Positions 448-8,931 of a stretch of 14,726 nt of DNA are shown here, in pieces. The notes beneath the pieces were generated by a model that saw only the letters and a list, made by a program, of their open reading frames with translations, did not search any database and was not told where the DNA came from. The stretch's first letter is position 1; each line of letters opens with the position of its first letter. The DNA comes from an uncultured bacterium (lineage in GTDB: Bacteria > Babelota > Babeliae > Babelales > RVW-14): positions 1 to 14,726 of the forward strand of contig CAVXAT010000015.1 of NCBI GenBank assembly GCA_963759805.1, written 5' to 3'. The translations under genes were made by a program, and so were the position numbers.

Positions 448-475
448 TTGACTTTAAAAGCCGTTCTGGTAACTT
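448..475 (+). promoter_or_regulatory. sigma70 promoter for the T-box/aspS transcript
   Basis: TTGACT (448-453), 16-nt spacer containing an extended -10 TG (467-468), TAACTT (470-475). The predicted TSS at ~482 lies just before T-box Stem I (486). Confidence 0.7.
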
Positions 476-485
476 AAATTCGAGA

Positions 486-712
486 GGCGATGACGATGCT
501 GACACATCTGAGCCAAGGAAAGAACGCCGAATTTGATTATCAAGTTTGTTTAGTAGAATCCTTCGGGTGTGCCCGTGATAGCACAAAGTCATACCAGTGC
601 ATGGTGAGGCTGAGGGGTCAGACTGAATTGATCTGGCAAGTAAGGTGGCACCGCGAACAGCAATTCGTCCTTACATATTTATTAGGCAACTTATTAAATT
701 CTGCGGGAGCCA
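486..712 (+). ncRNA. T-box riboswitch, class II/translational type with ultrashort Stem I and Asp (GAC) specifier
   Basis: Stem I 486-514: GGC-GATGAC-GATG-[CTGACA]-CATC-TGA-GCC, a K-turn plus a 6-nt loop with GAC at 501-503. Stem II 515-563: AAGGA/TCCTT with AAGAAC and TAGTAGAA S-turn strands. Stem IIA CGGG-TGTG-CCCG (564-575) with pseudoknot partner CACA (582-585). Stem III GTCAGA/TCTGGC (617-637). Antiterminator-type fold GTAAGG-TGGCACC-GCGAA...TTCGT-CCTTAC (640-674). Sits directly upstream of aspS. Confidence 0.93.
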
Positions 713-715
713 AAT

Positions 716-1540
716 ATGTTTTCAGAACAACGAATTTTATCATCTAATCTTAAGAACTATCTCAATAAAACAGTTAGTGTATCTGGATGGTTGCATAAGA
801 AGCGCAATCTGGGGAAAATTGCCTTTCTTGTTGTACGTGACAGGCACGGGCTCATGCAGATCGTTATTGATAATCAAACAGAAATAGCCAAGCTTGAACA
901 TTTACATCAAGGCTCGATACTCAACATTTCCGGTATGGTTGTTGATGCCCCAAAAACTCAATTTGGTTGTGAATTACACAACGCTTCAATCGAAGTTGCC
1001 GTCGCCGTAATAGATCCAAGTCCAGTTGAAATAGATAAGCCAATTGATCATCGGCAAGAAGTTCTGGCTAACATTTTTGATTGGCGGATTCTGACCATGA
1101 GAAATGTAACAGAGCAAGGCATATTCAAAATTCAATCTGGTGTGAGTGATGCAATTCGTTCATTTTTAACGTCAAATGACTTTGTTGAATTTCACAGTCC
1201 AAAATTACTCGCTGGTTCAACTGAAGGTGGAGCTGAAGTTTTCAAACTTGATTACTTTGGTAAGCAGGCAACGCTTGCTCAATCTGCTCAATTCTATAAA
1301 CAGATTATGGTTGGAGCATTTGAACGTGTATTCGAATTTGGTGCAACTTATCGCGCAGAGCCAAGCATGACATCTCGTCATCTAACTGAATTCATAACAG
1401 TTGACGTTGAGATGGGTTTTATAAATGGCATGGAAGATATTATGCAGACAATCAACGATATGATCCTGCATGTGGAACAAATCGTCTGGCAAACTTACGA
1501 AAAAGAACTGCTCGCACTTAATGCAACAAAACCTTTGCTC
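716..1540 (+). pseudogene. aspS: Aspartyl-tRNA synthetase (short archaeal/eukaryote-like, probably non-discriminating type), 5' part, interrupted by an IS
   Basis: OB-fold anticodon-binding domain (GWLHKKRNLGKIAFLVVRD), EFHSPKL, LAQSAQFYKQ and class II motif 2 YRAEPSMTSRHLTEF. The ORF tail after 1540 (YSDPHCQ...) is IS-derived. Confidence 0.92.
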
Positions 1541-1565
1541 TATAGTGACCCCCATTGTCAAGACA
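1541..1565 (-). repeat. IRR of the IS3 element, containing an outward-facing perfect -35 (TTGACA, 1561-1556)
   Basis: Inverted match to 3245-3269; TGTCAA on the plus strand at 1556-1561. Confidence 0.85.
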
Positions 1566-1594
1566 AATTTTTAACTTATATTTCAGAATTTTTA

Positions 1595-2515
1595 TCAGGC
1601 CATTTGTATCCCCATTGATTTATTTTGTTGAACGATGATTTTGCTATTACATACAAAAGCCAATGATTCGAAAGTAAAATCAGATTGGTCTACTGCAATG
1701 ATAGCTCCATAGTAAACTTCATCTGGTTTTTTATATTCGAGTGATTGGTGAAAGCGTTCTCTATTATAAAAGTTGATATAGTTTTTTATAATTAATCGCG
1801 TCTCAGCAATGTTTTCAAGAACATAAAAACACAGTGCTTCATATTTAATAGTTCGCCAGAATCGTTCAATAATGATGTTGTCTGCCCATCGACCTATTCC
1901 ATCCATACTAATTTTGATACCTTCTTTTTCTAAACGAGCAACCCATCTTTCACTTGTAAACTGGCACCCTTGATCACTATTTAAAATCTCAGGCTTACCG
2001 AGTACGAGAGCCATTTCCAATGCTTCAAGACAAACGTCTGTATCGAGATATGGTGACAATGCCCATCCCATAATCTTGCGACTAAAAACATCGATAAGAC
2101 AAACCAAATAAACAAACCCACCTCTTATTTTTACGTATGTGATATCTGTTTTCCAGACTTGGTTTGGGCGGCAAACTCGTAATCCTCTTAAAAGATATTT
2201 GTACACCTTGTGTTCCTTGTTTGGAATGCTAGTTTTTTTATAAGGGGCAACTGCACAAAGACCTGTCAACGTCATTAGCCGCTGTGTTCTTTTAATGTTG
2301 TGGTTAAAGCTTTTTTCGATAAGAACTTCGTGTATTTTTCGATATCCATAAAATGGATGTCTCTCATATTCGTTGCGTATCTCATCCATAATCACCTCGT
2401 CTTGGTTGTTGGCCTTCTTTGGCTTGTAATAAAGGCTACTTCGATTTATACCGAGCAGATCGCATTTTCTGGACAAGTTCAATTTGTTGTTGTGCTCAAT
2501 CCATTGCTTGCGCAC
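1595..2515 (-). CDS. IS3-family transposase OrfB (HTH_21 plus rve integrase core), expressed as an OrfAB fusion
   Basis: YGYRKI, PNQVWKTDITY (D), NSDQGCQF (D), DNIIIERFWRTIKYE (E) and YNRERFHQSL; the DDE triad is intact. Confidence 0.95.
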   Translation of the reverse strand: MRKQWIEHNNKLNLSRKCDLLGINRSSLYYKPKKANNQDEVIMDEIRNEYERHPFYGYRKIHEVLIEKSFNHNIKRTQRLMTLTGLCAVAPYKKTSIPNKEHKVYKYLLRGLRVCRPNQVWKTDITYVKIRGGFVYLVCLIDVFSRKIMGWALSPYLDTDVCLEALEMALVLGKPEILNSDQGCQFTSERWVARLEKEGIKISMDGIGRWADNIIIERFWRTIKYEALCFYVLENIAETRLIIKNYINFYNRERFHQSLEYKKPDEVYYGAIIAVDQSDFTFESLAFVCNSKIIVQQNKSMGIQMA

Positions 2516-2551
2516 TTGGATATCTAGCGACTGAGCACTTGTACTAAAAAA
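2492..2551 (-). promoter_or_regulatory. Programmed -1 ribosomal frameshift signal joining orfA2 and orfB
   Basis: Slippery heptamer T TTT TTA (2551-2545) in the orfA frame, a 6-nt spacer, then a 10-bp stem GTGCTCAGTC/GATTGAGCAC (2538-2529 / 2501-2492). The -1 frame is open from the heptamer into orfB. Confidence 0.85.
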
Positions 2552-2802
2552 TTGCGCTCTTCCTTTACTTGTTCAAGGTCTGCCAAAATCTTGTCATATG
2601 TTTCTTCTTTTTTAACTTTTCTTTTGTCTGCAAAAAGTTCGTTGCCATGCTCTTCTAGGTGTTGCTTCCATGCATATGCTTGGCATGTTGAAATATTAAA
2701 TTCTCTACAGATGGTATCAACTGATTTGTCGGCCTTTATCATAGCTAAAGCCACCTTAAGTTTAAGCTTGTCATCATGACTTTTTTTCGTGTCATCACTC
2801 AT
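2524..2802 (-). CDS. IS3 OrfA (HTH_Tnp_1-like), frameshift-competent copy
   Basis: MSDDTKKSHDDKLKLKVAL...CREFNISTCQAYAWKQ HTH, C-terminal coiled coil and ERNFL end. ATG 2802 is preceded by AAAGG, a better start than the TTG at 2826. Confidence 0.9.
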   Translation of the reverse strand: MSDDTKKSHDDKLKLKVALAMIKADKSVDTICREFNISTCQAYAWKQHLEEHGNELFADKRKVKKEETYDKILADLEQVKEERNFLVQVLSR

Positions 2803-2850
2803 GAGAATGCCTTTCTTGTAAAGCAAATTTTTAGATTTAACATTCTCATG
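2800..2850 (-). promoter_or_regulatory. Perfect 10-bp inverted repeat that would sequester the orfA2 start codon
   Basis: CATGAGAATG (2800-2809) and CATTCTCATG (2841-2850); ATG 2802-2800 lies in the 3' arm on the mRNA. Confidence 0.6.
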
Positions 2851-2903
2851 CTAATTCATTATTATTGTCGTTGTACACAGTTTATCCATTTGCGTTTATT
2901 GCA

Positions 2904-3179
2904 TTAAAGCGCCCGCAATAATGACTCACGTTCTACAATAAGCTTGCCTATAATCACATGAAACTTTTCAACATCTAAACTTTTTTTTGCAGCCATTTTT
3001 TCACTCGAAAAAACTTCAATGCCTCGATCTTCAAGCCGTTTTTTCCATGCATAAATTTGACTTGTCGCTAATGCAAATTCTTGGCATAATTCAGCTATTG
3101 GCCTATCAGCCTTTATAGCTGCCAATGCAACTTTTAGTTTAAATTTGTTGCTGTGGGTTCTGCTTACTTTGTTACTCAT
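2904..3179 (-). CDS. Second IS3 OrfA-like HTH protein inside the same IS (no slippery site)
   Basis: 29 of the first 57 residues are identical, ungapped, to the 2524-2802 OrfA (KLKVALA.IKAD, C.EF, Q.YAWK). Ends ERESLLRAL* without the TTTTTTA motif. Confidence 0.88.
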   Translation of the reverse strand: MSNKVSRTHSNKFKLKVALAAIKADRPIAELCQEFALATSQIYAWKKRLEDRGIEVFSSEKMAAKKSLDVEKFHVIIGKLIVERESLLRAL

Positions 3180-3244
3180 TTAATGCCCCCCGGGCTCATT
3201 GTTATAACTAATATTTTTAAAGTACTTATTTTCTCAAGTTGCAC

Positions 3245-3269
3245 TGTCTAGTTTTATGGGGTCAGTATA
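3245..3269 (-). repeat. IRL of the IS3 element, beginning 5'-TATACT
   Basis: Inverted match to 1541-1565; lies upstream of the orfA genes. Confidence 0.85.
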
Positions 3270-3770
3270 CTTTCCCCAAAATTTCCAGTCGTGACCTTGC
3301 AGGAGCTGCACGAGCTTTGCTTTGAAAAAACAGGTCAAGACTTTAGAAATGAAAAAGATCCAAGCCCATTTGAAGAACGTTGGATTTGCTCATATTCTGC
3401 AGAGAATTTGGGTAGCGAAGCAGTATTTATTACGGGCTTTCCAGCAAGCGAAATGAAATTTTATCACTATCGTAGTGAATCCAATCCAAGTATTGCTCAG
3501 CGATTTGACTTGATCTTTCGTGGGGTTGAAATCATTACAGGCAGCCAGCGCGAACATCGCTATGACAAGCTAATTGAACAACTCAAGGCAATGGGTGGAA
3601 ATCCTGAAGATTCTGGCTTTCAATATTATCTGCAAGCTTTCAAATATGGGATGCCTGCGCACGGTGGATTTGGTTTAGGGCTTGAACGATTGGCTCAGAA
3701 GATCATTGGACTTGGTAATGTTAAAGAAGCATGTATATTCCCACGGGATATTAACAGATTGGTGCCTTAA
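3270..3770 (+). pseudogene. aspS: Aspartyl-tRNA synthetase, 3' part
   Basis: Open frame from 3270: LSPKFPVVTLQEL...FDLIFRGVEIITGSQREH...YGMPAHGGFGLGLERL (motif 3)...FPRDINRLVP*. It is in frame with 716-1540, and the reconstructed protein is 440-441 aa. Confidence 0.92.
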
Positions 3771-5406: not shown

Positions 5407-5931
5407 ATGGCAATAATGATAAACAGATGCACCTTTAGACCGATGATTCAGGAAGATTGCCCAATCATGACTACAGCCATTGATACGCTCGGGTGGAATT
5501 CGCCAGCCAAACCATTCCAGAAATATCTGGAAGAACAATTAAGCGAAACTCGCTTTGTATGGGTTGTTTACTGTGAAGACAAATTTGTTGGATATGTCAC
5601 TTTAAAGTTGAATTCTGATTATCCGCAGTTCAGTCTTCAGGGTATTCCTGAGATCAATGATTTAAATGTACTTCCAGAATTTAGACGACGTGGTATTGCT
5701 TCAAAGTTGTTGGAGTTGGCTGAAAATGAAGCTAAAAAAAGAGGGTTTAAACAAATTGGTTTAGGTGTTGGGTTATATTCAGATTATGGCCCAGCACAAA
5801 GGCTCTACGTGAAAAGAGGATATGTCCCAGACGGTCATGGAATAACCACAAAAAATAAGCAACTTGGATACGGAGACACGACAATTGTTGATGACGATTT
5901 GGTGTTGTGGTTTGTGAAGATGTTGAATTAA
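5407..5931 (+). CDS. GNAT-family N-acetyltransferase
   Basis: Acetyl-CoA motif A (LNVLPEFRRRGIASKLL) and YGPAQRLYVKRGY. The start could be 5407 or 5416. Confidence 0.9.
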   Translation: MAIMINRCTFRPMIQEDCPIMTTAIDTLGWNSPAKPFQKYLEEQLSETRFVWVVYCEDKFVGYVTLKLNSDYPQFSLQGIPEINDLNVLPEFRRRGIASKLLELAENEAKKRGFKQIGLGVGLYSDYGPAQRLYVKRGYVPDGHGITTKNKQLGYGDTTIVDDDLVLWFVKMLN

Positions 5932-5943
5932 AAGGCTAAAGCA

Positions 5944-6717
5944 ATGGTTCTGAATAAATACACAGAAATCAACGAGCTTATCAAAGAGTTATTAAATGGT
6001 ATTCAAGCCGTACTCGGAAATAAGTTGGCAGGCCTTTATCTTTATGGCTCACTTGCAATCGGTGATTTTGATGAAAACATCAGTGATATCGATTTATTGT
6101 GCGCCACAACAACAAATATAGATGAAAATGATTTCGAAAAGCTCGATCAGATGCATAAATGGTTTGTTCAAAAATATGAACAGTGGAATGATCGCCTTGA
6201 GATTGCGTATTTATCGATAGATACCTTACAATCGCCCGTAATTCAACAAGATCAAATTGCCATTATCAGTCCAGGGGAGCCATTCAATATTAAAAAAATC
6301 GGAGCTGATTGGCTGATTAATTTCTACGTTATTCGCGAACAAGGAATAACTATTTGCGGAGATGATTCCAAAAAGATCATTAAACCAATTTCTAAACAAG
6401 AATTTATTGATGCCGTAAAAAGTCAAGCGCTAGAATGGCGTGATTGGATTTCGCATACAAAATATTCTCGTTCGTATCAGGGTTATGCGATTTTAACTAT
6501 GTGCAGAGCCTTATACGCATGTAAGACAGGAAAGCAGCCCTCCAAAATAAATGCCGCTCTGTGGGCTATGAAAGAATTACCGGAATTGACTGAACAAATT
6601 CAAGCCGCACTTCAATGGCGCAAGGAGTATAAGCGTATGGATATAAACCATGAGTCAACATATCCAGAAACACTTAAATTTGTTAATTGTATTATTGATA
6701 TGATTATAAAAGGTTGA
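5944..6717 (+). CDS. AadA/ANT-like aminoglycoside nucleotidyltransferase family protein (pol-beta NTase plus DUF4111-like helical domain)
   Basis: LYLYGSLAIGDFDENISDIDLL, RLEIAY, YAILTMCRALY and SKINAALWA. Confidence 0.85.
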   Translation: MVLNKYTEINELIKELLNGIQAVLGNKLAGLYLYGSLAIGDFDENISDIDLLCATTTNIDENDFEKLDQMHKWFVQKYEQWNDRLEIAYLSIDTLQSPVIQQDQIAIISPGEPFNIKKIGADWLINFYVIREQGITICGDDSKKIIKPISKQEFIDAVKSQALEWRDWISHTKYSRSYQGYAILTMCRALYACKTGKQPSKINAALWAMKELPELTEQIQAALQWRKEYKRMDINHESTYPETLKFVNCIIDMIIKG

Positions 6718-6722
6718 TAGTT

Positions 6723-7673
6723 ATGGATATAAATTACGAGCAGTTTGCTGAAAAAATCATTGCGTTTCATTTCAATCAGATGCCCAAATATATCAAGCGA
6801 ATAACGATTGGCATTTGTAATGAGGTTTATGATGTTGGCCTTGGTGATCAAGAAATTATTATACGTCTGAGCATGCAGGATAAATATTTGATGGGATCGC
6901 ATGATCATATAACAAAACTGAAAGCACTGGGAATTAAAGTTCCAGAGATTTTGGCTGAGGATTACAGCAAAACCAAATTTCCATTTTCATATCAGATTCA
7001 AAGCAAGATTGAAGGGCATGACCTTGGCTGCGTAATAGAAACCCTTGCAGATGAACAATTGATGTTATTAGCCAAAGAAATCGTAAATATCTTCAACAAA
7101 ATTAAAACCATACCATCAAGCAATAAATTTGGAGTCATCTGGGGTGGCGGCAACAATGATGTTAGCGATACCTGGACTGAAAGAATGAGAATATGGATAG
7201 ACGAGTCTCTTGGGCGTGGTTACAATACTGGCATAATGAATGATGATATTGCCGATCTGGCAGATGGTCTTTATTACGAATATCAATCCTATTTCGATCA
7301 AGTTAAACCAACAACTTATTTTGGGGATATTTGCTCCAAAAATGTGATGATAACGAATGGTGCATTTAGTGGACTTGTCGACTTAGATGGCCTAACGCAA
7401 GGTGATCCACTGGAGGCTATTGGGCGAATAAAGTTAAGTTGGTACGGAACTCACCACGGCAAAGTTTATACTGATGCGATCATGGATGAAATGCAGCTTG
7501 ATGCGATACAAAGAAAAATAGTTACAGTATATTCTCTACTAAACCAGATCTCATGGATGTGTGAAAATGGGATTCAATTCAATCAAAACACTAAACCTGT
7601 TGTGGATAGAAATAAAGAACTAGCAGATAAAAAAATAATTGATGCTTTGGCTGCAGAGTTTAAAATAGTCTGA
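6723..7673 (+). CDS. Aminoglycoside phosphotransferase (APH)/choline-kinase superfamily protein
   Basis: GICNEVY, IIRL, GIKVPEIL, catalytic GDICSKNV, Mg-binding VDLD and GDPL. ATG 6723 is preferred to TTG 6714. Confidence 0.82.
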   Translation: MDINYEQFAEKIIAFHFNQMPKYIKRITIGICNEVYDVGLGDQEIIIRLSMQDKYLMGSHDHITKLKALGIKVPEILAEDYSKTKFPFSYQIQSKIEGHDLGCVIETLADEQLMLLAKEIVNIFNKIKTIPSSNKFGVIWGGGNNDVSDTWTERMRIWIDESLGRGYNTGIMNDDIADLADGLYYEYQSYFDQVKPTTYFGDICSKNVMITNGAFSGLVDLDGLTQGDPLEAIGRIKLSWYGTHHGKVYTDAIMDEMQLDAIQRKIVTVYSLLNQISWMCENGIQFNQNTKPVVDRNKELADKKIIDALAAEFKIV

Positions 7674-7703
7674 ATATATGTTAAAACTTGGTCAGGAGAT
7701 CTT

Positions 7704-8423
7704 ATGGCAAAAGTTCTTATTGGGGCACTGGTAGGCATGGGCCCAAATTCTACGGCACCATTTTATGACGCTGTAATGAACTACGCAAGAACGTTATACG
7801 GCGCAAAAAATGATATTGATTTTCCAGAAATGGTTATGATTTCTCTGCCGACTCCATTTGTTCCAGGTGCTGCGCTTGACGATTTAAAAATGATTTCGAT
7901 ATTAACAGACGCGGTGCAAAGGTTAAATCGCTTTGGTGTGAACTACATTGTTATACCGTGCAATGTTGTACATAGATATTATGACGACATGCAGCAGGTT
8001 TCGGCTGTGCCAATATTAAACATCATAGATATTGCAGTGAATAGATTACTGGAAAACTCATCCCAAACAGCGCCAATTGCTCTGATTGGAACTCGCAGCA
8101 CAATTGATGCAGGTTTGTATCAGCAGCGGTTAACTGAAAAAGGCATCAAGATTTTTCATACTCAAGAATTACAACGCAAAGTCGACGGACTGCTTTTAGA
8201 ATTAAAGAGAAAAAATGAATCAGAGTTGGCAAGAGCTTGTTGGTATAATCTTGTAAAATACCTTGAGAAAAATTGTTGTGCTGCAGGAATAATTGCTTGC
8301 ACCGATATTTCACCTCTTATCGATTTTTACACCGAAAATTTAATGTTGATAGATTCGATGGACGCTTTGGCTCAAGCAACAATTGAAGAGTTCATGCGGT
8401 TGAGGGCAGAGCAGCATGTCTAA
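7704..8423 (+). CDS. Aspartate/glutamate racemase family (RacX/YgeA-like)
   Basis: GMGPNSTAPFY; both catalytic cysteines are present (IVIPCN and IIACTD); SD AGGAG at 7694-7698. Confidence 0.9.
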   Translation: MAKVLIGALVGMGPNSTAPFYDAVMNYARTLYGAKNDIDFPEMVMISLPTPFVPGAALDDLKMISILTDAVQRLNRFGVNYIVIPCNVVHRYYDDMQQVSAVPILNIIDIAVNRLLENSSQTAPIALIGTRSTIDAGLYQQRLTEKGIKIFHTQELQRKVDGLLLELKRKNESELARACWYNLVKYLEKNCCAAGIIACTDISPLIDFYTENLMLIDSMDALAQATIEEFMRLRAEQHV

Positions 8424-8931
8424 AAATTTCACGTTCAAACCGGTTGATGCAAATGATCTGCCTCTTTTATACGCATGGTTTAAAAAACCACACGTCGATC
8501 TATGGTGGCCAGTGCCAGACGAGCAAGAAGATTTTTTTAAATCATTCTTGGAACGAATTCGTGCAGGAGTAAAGAAGCCATACATGGTTTTGTTAAACGA
8601 TTTGCCAATTGGATACATTCAAAGTTACAGCATTAACAAAACGACACATTCATGGCTACCGAAATTACCCAGCGATGGAAATGTTGTTGGCATTGATCAG
8701 TTTATTGGTGAGCCGGATTATCTTTATAAAGGATTTGGACCACTTTTTATAAAACAATTTGTTGATGATCTTATCGCAAACGATCCAAGCATTACAGTTA
8801 TTGTTGATCCTGACCCAACAAATTCTGTGGCAATAAGATGCTATGAAAAGGTTGGATTCAAAAGGTTTGGCGTATATCAGGCTCCTTGGGGACCTGCATT
8901 GGTTATGACTCATAGTCAATATAAAAATTAG
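8416..8931 (+). CDS. GNAT acetyltransferase, AAC(6')-Ib/Ie-like (Acetyltransf_8-type)
   Basis: PHVDLWW, PIGYIQSY, GIDQFIGEPDYLYKGFG and DPDPTNSVAIRCYEKVGF. The start overlaps the racemase stop. Confidence 0.88.
   Translation: MSKNFTFKPVDANDLPLLYAWFKKPHVDLWWPVPDEQEDFFKSFLERIRAGVKKPYMVLLNDLPIGYIQSYSINKTTHSWLPKLPSDGNVVGIDQFIGEPDYLYKGFGPLFIKQFVDDLIANDPSITVIVDPDPTNSVAIRCYEKVGFKRFGVYQAPWGPALVMTHSQYKN

Follow-up and report, generated by a model that had tools for sequence, protein, structure and literature searches.

The T-box upstream of an archaeal-type aspS in a Babeliales genome has an ultrashort Stem I with an Asp specifier and belongs to a family apparently common in Patescibacteria

The leader of an archaeal-type aspS gene in a Babeliales genome raises the question of which tRNA a T-box with an ultrashort Stem I senses, and by what means it might act on the gene downstream. 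We analyzed a stretch of 14,726 nucleotides, referred to here as the window, in which positions 486-674 are a T-box with a Stem I of 29 nucleotides and the triplet GAC in its apical hexaloop (Table 1). A first-pass annotation, made from the sequence alone, had claimed the ultrashort Stem I, Stem II and the IIA/B pseudoknot, and all of these features were found where it had placed them. The K-turn of Stem I, the S-turn of Stem II and the pseudoknot are assigned from sequence motifs together with covariation and are to that extent putative. The antiterminator/antisequestrator helix has the UGGN bulge of a T-box, in the form UGGC, and tRNA-Asp ends in G-CCA. The specifier matches the gene that follows (GAC before aspS), and the linker and Stem III fit the RRRNG-Stem III-AA motif given for T-boxes in the accessible text of PMC7778990. 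A consensus scan for sigma-70 promoters returned 0 sites.

Table 1. Features of the leader and of the interrupted aspS gene, in window coordinates
Feature	Position	Strand	Remarks
Possible sigma-70 promoter, weak	448..475	+	TTGACT, 16 nt, TG-n-TAACTT; suggested by the sequence letters
Stem I, ultrashort, 29 nt	486..514	+	3-bp base, K-turn-type strands, 4-bp apical helix, hexaloop; sequence and covariation
Stem I base pairing	486-488 / 512-514	+	GGC / GCC
Stem I K-turn-type strands	489-494 / 509-511	+	
Stem I apical helix	495-498 / 505-508	+	GATG / CATC
Stem I loop	499-504	+	CTGACA
Specifier GAC (Asp), then A504	501..503	+	loop codon tracks downstream synthetase across 110 loci (among matches listed)
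Stem II	515..563	+	upper helix imperfect in the window copy
Stem II lower helix	515-519 / 559-563	+	begins one base after Stem I end
Stem II S-turn-type strands	520-524, 552-556	+	AAGAA, AGTAG
Stem IIA/B pseudoknot	564..584	+	IIA 564-566 / 573-575; pseudoknot 569-572 / 581-584
Extra variable hairpin, 5' of Stem III	588..610	+	MFE fold; several relatives have similar hairpins by eye
Purine linker, Stem III (617-637), AA	612..639	+	
Antiterminator/antisequestrator helix	640..674	+	7-nt bulge TGGCACC 646-652, UGGC 646-649; complementary to tRNA-Asp G-CCA end
Expression platform	675..718	+	SD-like GGGAG 705-709; GCCA 709-712; AUG 716; no clear U-tract terminator
Shadow ORFs overlapping the leader	490-747, 645-887		
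5' part of archaeal-type aspS (PRK05159 family)	716..1540	+	ORF 716
IS3-family element splitting aspS	1541..3269	-	near-identical copies on C1, C2, C5, C11
3' part of aspS	3270..3770	+	ORF 3291; PRK05159 positions 284-438

The resemblance of the leader to T-boxes was not due to chance. The check proposed in the first-pass annotation, a search with the Rfam model RF00230, gave a match to positions 481-675 of 52.7 bits (E 2.7e-9), below the cut-off of 93 bits; because this model was built without the window sequence, a match of that significance indicates that the leader is not a chance fold. The alignment replaced 74 Stem I model positions with 4 nucleotides; the first-pass annotation had described the AG-bulge/distal T-loop platform as missing. 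In a 13-row alignment of aspS leaders (Stem III misaligned and 39% paired), two-sided changes occurred in 21/34 pairs, a value reached in 0/500 shuffles, and pairing was 89% versus 35-42% in slid controls. In 98 model-aligned leaders, an alignment fitted to the structure, 20/24 pairs were compensatory and 97% of cells were paired. The lower helix of Stem II had compensatory changes in 4/5 pairs of the 13-row alignment and 5/5 among the 98 leaders, and the two variable pseudoknot pairs were formed in 94/120 and 73/120 loci among the matches listed (shuffle means, 46 and 45). A chance resemblance with no T-box at all would fit the score under the Rfam cut-off and the MFE folding of the whole leader, which was not significant (z -0.72), but its probability is negligible given the E value, the agreement of codon and gene, and the fact that each core helix covaries; this agreement and the covariation of the 98 leaders rule it out. 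Rfam matches to snoZ182 and L20_leader were at chance level and were rejected.

The specifier corresponds to the downstream synthetase across the family. We scanned metagenomes with a specifier-blind pattern that omits the loop, and found at least 120 loci (111 unique among the matches listed); each downstream gene was assigned from its best blastp match among 16 references that had been typed by NCBIfam. Among the 120 listed loci, 8 were without a called gene and 2 without a codon, and 110 were scored. The loop codon agreed with the downstream synthetase in 97 of these 110 listed loci (ATC-ileS, 50; GAC-aspS, 41; GTC-valS, 5; AAC-asnS, 1); the others were AAC before aspS (12) and a single mismatch, GTC before aspS (L151). 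The covariation of specifier and gene in relatives, which the first-pass annotation had asked for, is thus present. Every listed GAC locus with a called gene preceded aspS (41/41). The bulge was UGGC in 35/43 and UGGU in 6/43 of the listed GAC loci, and UGGU in 47/54 of the listed ATC loci; judged from these sequences, it tracks the discriminator base. The tRNA-Asp(GUC) of the host genome ends in G-CCA. We take GAC as the specifier mainly because of the agreement of codon with gene and of bulge with discriminator across the listed loci. These comparisons bear out the Asp specificity proposed earlier, and the leader likely senses uncharged tRNA-Asp.

We considered whether the ligand might be another tRNA, either tRNA-Asn or one read in a shifted register (ACA, Thr), or two tRNAs. 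tRNA-Asn also ends in G-CCA, AAC stands before aspS in 12 listed loci, including L085, a member of the window's own aspS clade, and the best structural match of the enzyme is the non-discriminating AspRS2 (1n9w). However, GAC stands in the register that ATC, GTC and AAC occupy wherever codon and gene agree, it would form one mispair with GUU, and the -1 register spells a stop codon. We regard a ligand other than tRNA-Asp alone as quite improbable.

The window resembles Class III T-boxes in form and departs from them in specificity, host and target. Class III is described in the accessible text of PMC10482949 by a short Stem I with the specifier in an apical penta- or hexaloop, with actinobacterial examples such as ileS of N. 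farcinica, and as mostly translational. Stem II is needed for function in this class, and in the window it is present and covaries. As in the leaders upstream of ileS in Nocardia farcinica and Mycobacterium tuberculosis, the window has a short Stem I without interdigitated T-loops, a specifier in a hexanucleotide loop (499-504), Stem II with an S-turn, a IIA/B pseudoknot, Stem III and a UGGN bulge, and it has no clear terminator. Unlike them, it has GAC and UGGC rather than an Ile specificity, a Babeliales host and an archaeal-type aspS target; its OFF state is predicted to pair the bulge with a GCCA beside the AUG; and most members of its family elsewhere end in predicted terminators. With regard to the mostly translational character of Class III, the window has no terminator and a weak predicted switch, and 95/149 of its relatives have predicted terminators. 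Nor is it an actinobacterial ileS T-box, in which AUC stands before ileS in an actinobacterial host: the locus is also found in a same-order genome labelled Ca. Babeliaceae (G050), which places the host in the Babeliales (TM6), and the non-actinobacterial lineage proposed by the first-pass annotation is borne out.

Other classes share parts of the architecture. With Class I of the Firmicutes (RF00230; the Bacillus subtilis tyrS type) the window family has in common Stem II, IIA/B, Stem III and the antiterminator core, as well as many amino-acid specificities, a preference for C at the third position, and both synthetase and biosynthesis genes as targets. It differs from Class I in its specifier, which is in a terminal loop rather than an internal specifier loop, and in its Stem I, which is not long and lacks the interdigitated T-loops, the AG bulge and the distal T-loop. 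Class IV, as characterized in the available part of PMC10482949, likewise has Stem II and no elbow-binding motif, but its specifier is in a side bulge of an intermediate Stem I, unlike the apical-loop specifier of the 29-nucleotide stem in the window. The rule for an ultrashort stem was passed by 94/120 listed loci, and some of the 26 that fail look Class IV-like by eye. Eleven loci have an intermediate, Class IV-like Stem I before ileS or valS (L089, L097, L127, L135, L139, L140, L180, L203, L106, L122 and L206).

The family is broad in codons and in downstream genes. In searches of three Patescibacteria classes with a model termed R1, matches were found in 42/101 genomes of the class of records labelled Roizmanbacteria (one of the 42 is the unpublished G223), 6/101 of that labelled Yanofskybacteria and 56/101 of that labelled Saccharimonadia. 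All genome counts use R1, a model biased to GAC copies. Among 80 loci with a related aspS, 14 match R1, which was built from 12 of these plus the window; 12 of the 14, and the centre genomes G151 and G153, belong to its training set. We inspected 72 loci from the class searches, a subset of the matches in which some stems are longer or missing, and read their codons by eye. The codons of the family are those for Ile, Asp, Asn, Val, Leu, Pro, Phe, Trp and Tyr. Short stems carry CTC before leuS (L215) and TTC before pheS (L243); CCC precedes proS-like genes (L219, L272, L282) and TGG a trpB-like gene (L253), putative names based on Pfam family and sequence. GAC precedes genes for PEP carboxylase (L226), an aminotransferase (L250) and asparaginase (L221), and AAC precedes another PEP carboxylase gene (L222); these four loci could possibly form an aspartate-supply regulon in Patescibacteria. 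Two T-boxes (L237:1501-1827 and L248:1501-1826) are immediately 5' of tRNA-Tyr(GUA) genes, and since the specifier of L237 is TAC, this tRNA may regulate its own gene. At six further loci (L228, L269, L216, L238, L242, L244) short-stem loops suggesting Cys, Trp/Met, Arg, Pro or Ser precede non-synthetase ORFs (PIG-L deacetylase, desuccinylase-like, GNAT, unknown).

Standard annotation appears to pass over this family. RF00230 matched 8/18 and 15/20 such loci with 32-72 bits, and 0/38 of the scanned loci reached the cut-off. By these sequence matches, a large family, common in Patescibacteria, falls under the standard annotation cut-off, which agrees with the earlier suggestion that the standard model overlooks a wider family. 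The TBDB class II model was applied to Actinobacteria and to truncated class I hits only, according to the accessible text of PMC7778990, and the survey in the available part of PMC2494555, which predates CPR genomes, gives no T-boxes in 10 Chlamydiae genomes. The accessible portions of PMC12647780, PMC11297988, PMC12452182, PMC8632094 and bioRxiv 10.64898/2026.10.21.760802 contain nothing on non-Ile short stems or on these phyla. In the full-text literature covered by our searches we found no report of non-Ile ultrashort T-boxes, which may be new to print.

Most short-stem copies have predicted terminators, and the window does not. By a rule of a hairpin plus a U-tract, a terminator overlapping the 3' strand of the antiterminator helix was predicted in 95/149 short-stem copies, a few of which have doubtful stem alignments, and in 32/447 shuffles. 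The proportions differed among codons (GAC, 42/55; AAC, 16/23; ATC, 16/48; GTC, 5/6; others, 16/17), and terminators were predicted in 32/50 loci from genomes of the Patescibacteria classes. Transcriptional T-boxes are described in the accessible part of PMC7583486 (section 6.2) as generally requiring a long Stem I, with essential elbow-binding T-loops; the prevalence of predicted terminators among short-stem copies runs against that view. In the window, neither this rule nor a consensus scan of the + strand found a terminator. The first-pass annotation had called the leader a translational (class II) T-box, a reading that may fit the window itself, where there is no clear terminator; the TBDB class II label fits only part of the family, because most short-stem copies have predicted terminators.

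We asked how the platform of the window might work in the six-member aspS clade to which it belongs (window, L001, L002, L007, L009 and L085), in which the spacing from helix to AUG is 25-44 nucleotides. In predicted OFF folds of this clade the bulge region pairs with the region of the ribosome-binding site (RBS); in the window, 646-657 is predicted to pair with 699-712. In the models, forcing the ON helix made the RBS cheaper to open by 6.3 (L001), 6.8 (L002), 9.3 (L009) and 7.5 kcal/mol (L085), and the corresponding changes in three terminator-bearing controls were 0.8, -0.5 and 1.3 kcal/mol. The calculated changes were 1.5 for L007 and 0.6 kcal/mol for the window (opening cost 5.6 versus 5.0), the modelled OFF and ON folds of which are nearly equal (-15.4 versus -14.8). 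The switch predicted for the window itself is thus a weak one and may be in decay. L001 satisfies the terminator rule (-13.8), yet its stem holds the SD and its U-rich tail enters the AUG. A GCCA, the letters of the tRNA-Asp 3' end, is at most 14 nucleotides from the AUG in 4/6 clade members (L007 is without it), 1/145 other T-box loci and 20/1087 genome ORFs. The bulge of L009 is UGGA, which does not match G73. As the six members are kin rather than independent, and the folds are predictions, the pattern of GCCA and RBS is a lead and not a result.

It is improbable that the window senses tRNA-Asp with a transcriptional output, by weak intrinsic or Rho-dependent termination, as most of its relatives appear to have. 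The predicted terminators of short-stem GAC copies (42/55) would favor such an output, as would a weak hairpin (-6.4 kcal/mol) formed from the 3' strand in the register of the relatives' terminators. However, the U-tract is missing before the AUG, the best candidate (-9.8) takes in the start codon and coding Us, and the consensus scan was negative on the + strand.

The aspS gene of the window is interrupted. The first-pass annotation had correctly named aspS downstream of the leader and omitted that an IS3-family element splits it. This element has two tandem transposase-N-like ORFs (2524-2826 and 2904-3179); three other IS3 copies have perfect 3-bp flanking duplications, and the window copy has one mismatch. 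The copies are 99.8-100% identical across the genome, and the insertion in aspS is therefore likely recent. The host genome has its own intact bacterial aspS, as well as asnS and gatB. The locus occurs a second time in the assembly (G000:C3); this copy has other letters at window positions 554 and 556, within the S-turn strand, and indels in its gene, differences that may be consensus error. Two public runs yielded contig pieces that agree with 380-526, 566-716 and 587-737 except for 1, 2 and 0 letters, respectively; the independent piece over 380-526 comes from run X2, and the pieces together omit 527-565. The contig of the window (C15; 1-1540 and 8646-14726) overlaps both ends of C3 at 99.1-99.5%, which suggests either that the two form a circle of some 32 kb or that a repeat was collapsed. 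On C3 a ResIII helicase gene adjoins the T-box and two ORFs resemble serine recombinases by eye, so the T-box/aspS cassette may sit on a mobile island. Window positions 5407-8931 hold GNAT, nucleotidyltransferase-like, phosphotransferase-like, racemase and AAC(6')-like genes, all under curated resistance-gene cut-offs.

These observations bear on whether the leader is a genuine family member that has become a decaying relic, regulating nothing useful because its gene is split and redundant. Consistent with this are the IS3 element inside aspS, the intact bacterial aspS elsewhere, the predicted switch, which is the weakest in its clade, the imperfect upper Stem II, and the S-turn changes and indels of the C3 copy. 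On the other hand, the window copy retains every core motif and helix, the element likely inserted recently, the leader and independent contig pieces differ at 0-2 positions, and the other four Babelota matches sit in open frames of 457-482 amino acids. We consider a relic unlikely, though it is the alternative that we weigh most heavily.

The leader and aspS appear to have arrived together by horizontal transfer, probably from Patescibacteria, before the IS3 element inserted. This archaeal-type aspS was found in 5/261 Babelota genomes, all 5 of which carry the T-box, and no aspS match was found in 3 congeners of the host; this distribution, together with the host's own bacterial aspS, asnS and gatB, argues for transfer. 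In a midpoint-drawn aspS tree of 54 rows, the window grouped with L001, L002, L007, L009 and L085 (support 95/96), and next to this clade stood three rows, labelled Verrucomicrobiota or unlabelled, amid sequences from Patescibacteria, the putative donors. Genome placement put 5/6 clade members in the Babeliales, including L001 against its record label. R1 matched 4/151 Babelota genomes, one weakly. Among 401 Chlamydiia genomes there was no clade member beyond L009, and four weaker matches were without a T-box match; viral contigs contained no relative. The record labels of L001, L010, L011, L015 and L021 (Pseudomonadota, Gammaproteobacteria) look unreliable: the L001 genome was placed in the window's own family, and that of L015 has six model matches. 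Another Babeliales genome (G144) has a weak T-box-like leader and a terminator before an amino-acid permease gene (L086:1501-1650).

Based on these comparisons and on the folding models, we think it reasonably probable that the leader is an Asp T-box that binds tRNA-Asp and controls translation of aspS. From established knowledge of T-boxes, the apical-loop GAC would pair with the anticodon GUC. The S-turn of Stem II would latch the codon-anticodon helix, standing in for the elbow-binding T-loops that are missing here, and uncharged tRNA-Asp would pair with UGGC through its free G73-CCA end and stabilize the helix at 640-674. Without uncharged tRNA, the bulge region is predicted to pair with the SD and the GCCA segment before the AUG, blocking initiation; stabilization of the helix would free the RBS, giving a translational output. 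Leader and gene would have moved horizontally; the probable source is Patescibacteria, in which most copies of the leader run into a predicted terminator. We more tentatively suggest a wider scheme, which we rate at somewhat below even chances: that ultrashort-Stem-I T-boxes are a general regulon of Patescibacteria for many amino acids, terminating transcription without contact to the tRNA elbow, and that in the branch carried into Babeliales and Chlamydiae the terminator gave way to a GCCA in cis, a mimic of the tRNA end beside the start codon, which would pair with UGGC and be displaced by uncharged tRNA-Asp.

Because its gene is interrupted, the window copy matters less than the family; the window contributes a branch in Babeliales, an apparent switch of platform and, with it, the GCCA element. 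The family forms a natural series on one minimal scaffold, with at least 9 codons, most members having predicted terminators and a few having none. This series makes testable whether co-transcriptional switching needs contact with the elbow, how the groove of Stem I and Stem II takes non-Ile anticodons, and how one aptamer swaps its expression platform after gene transfer. The family offers compact tRNA sensors, and it places tRNA-sensing regulation in reduced genomes, where the Rfam cut-off had hidden it.
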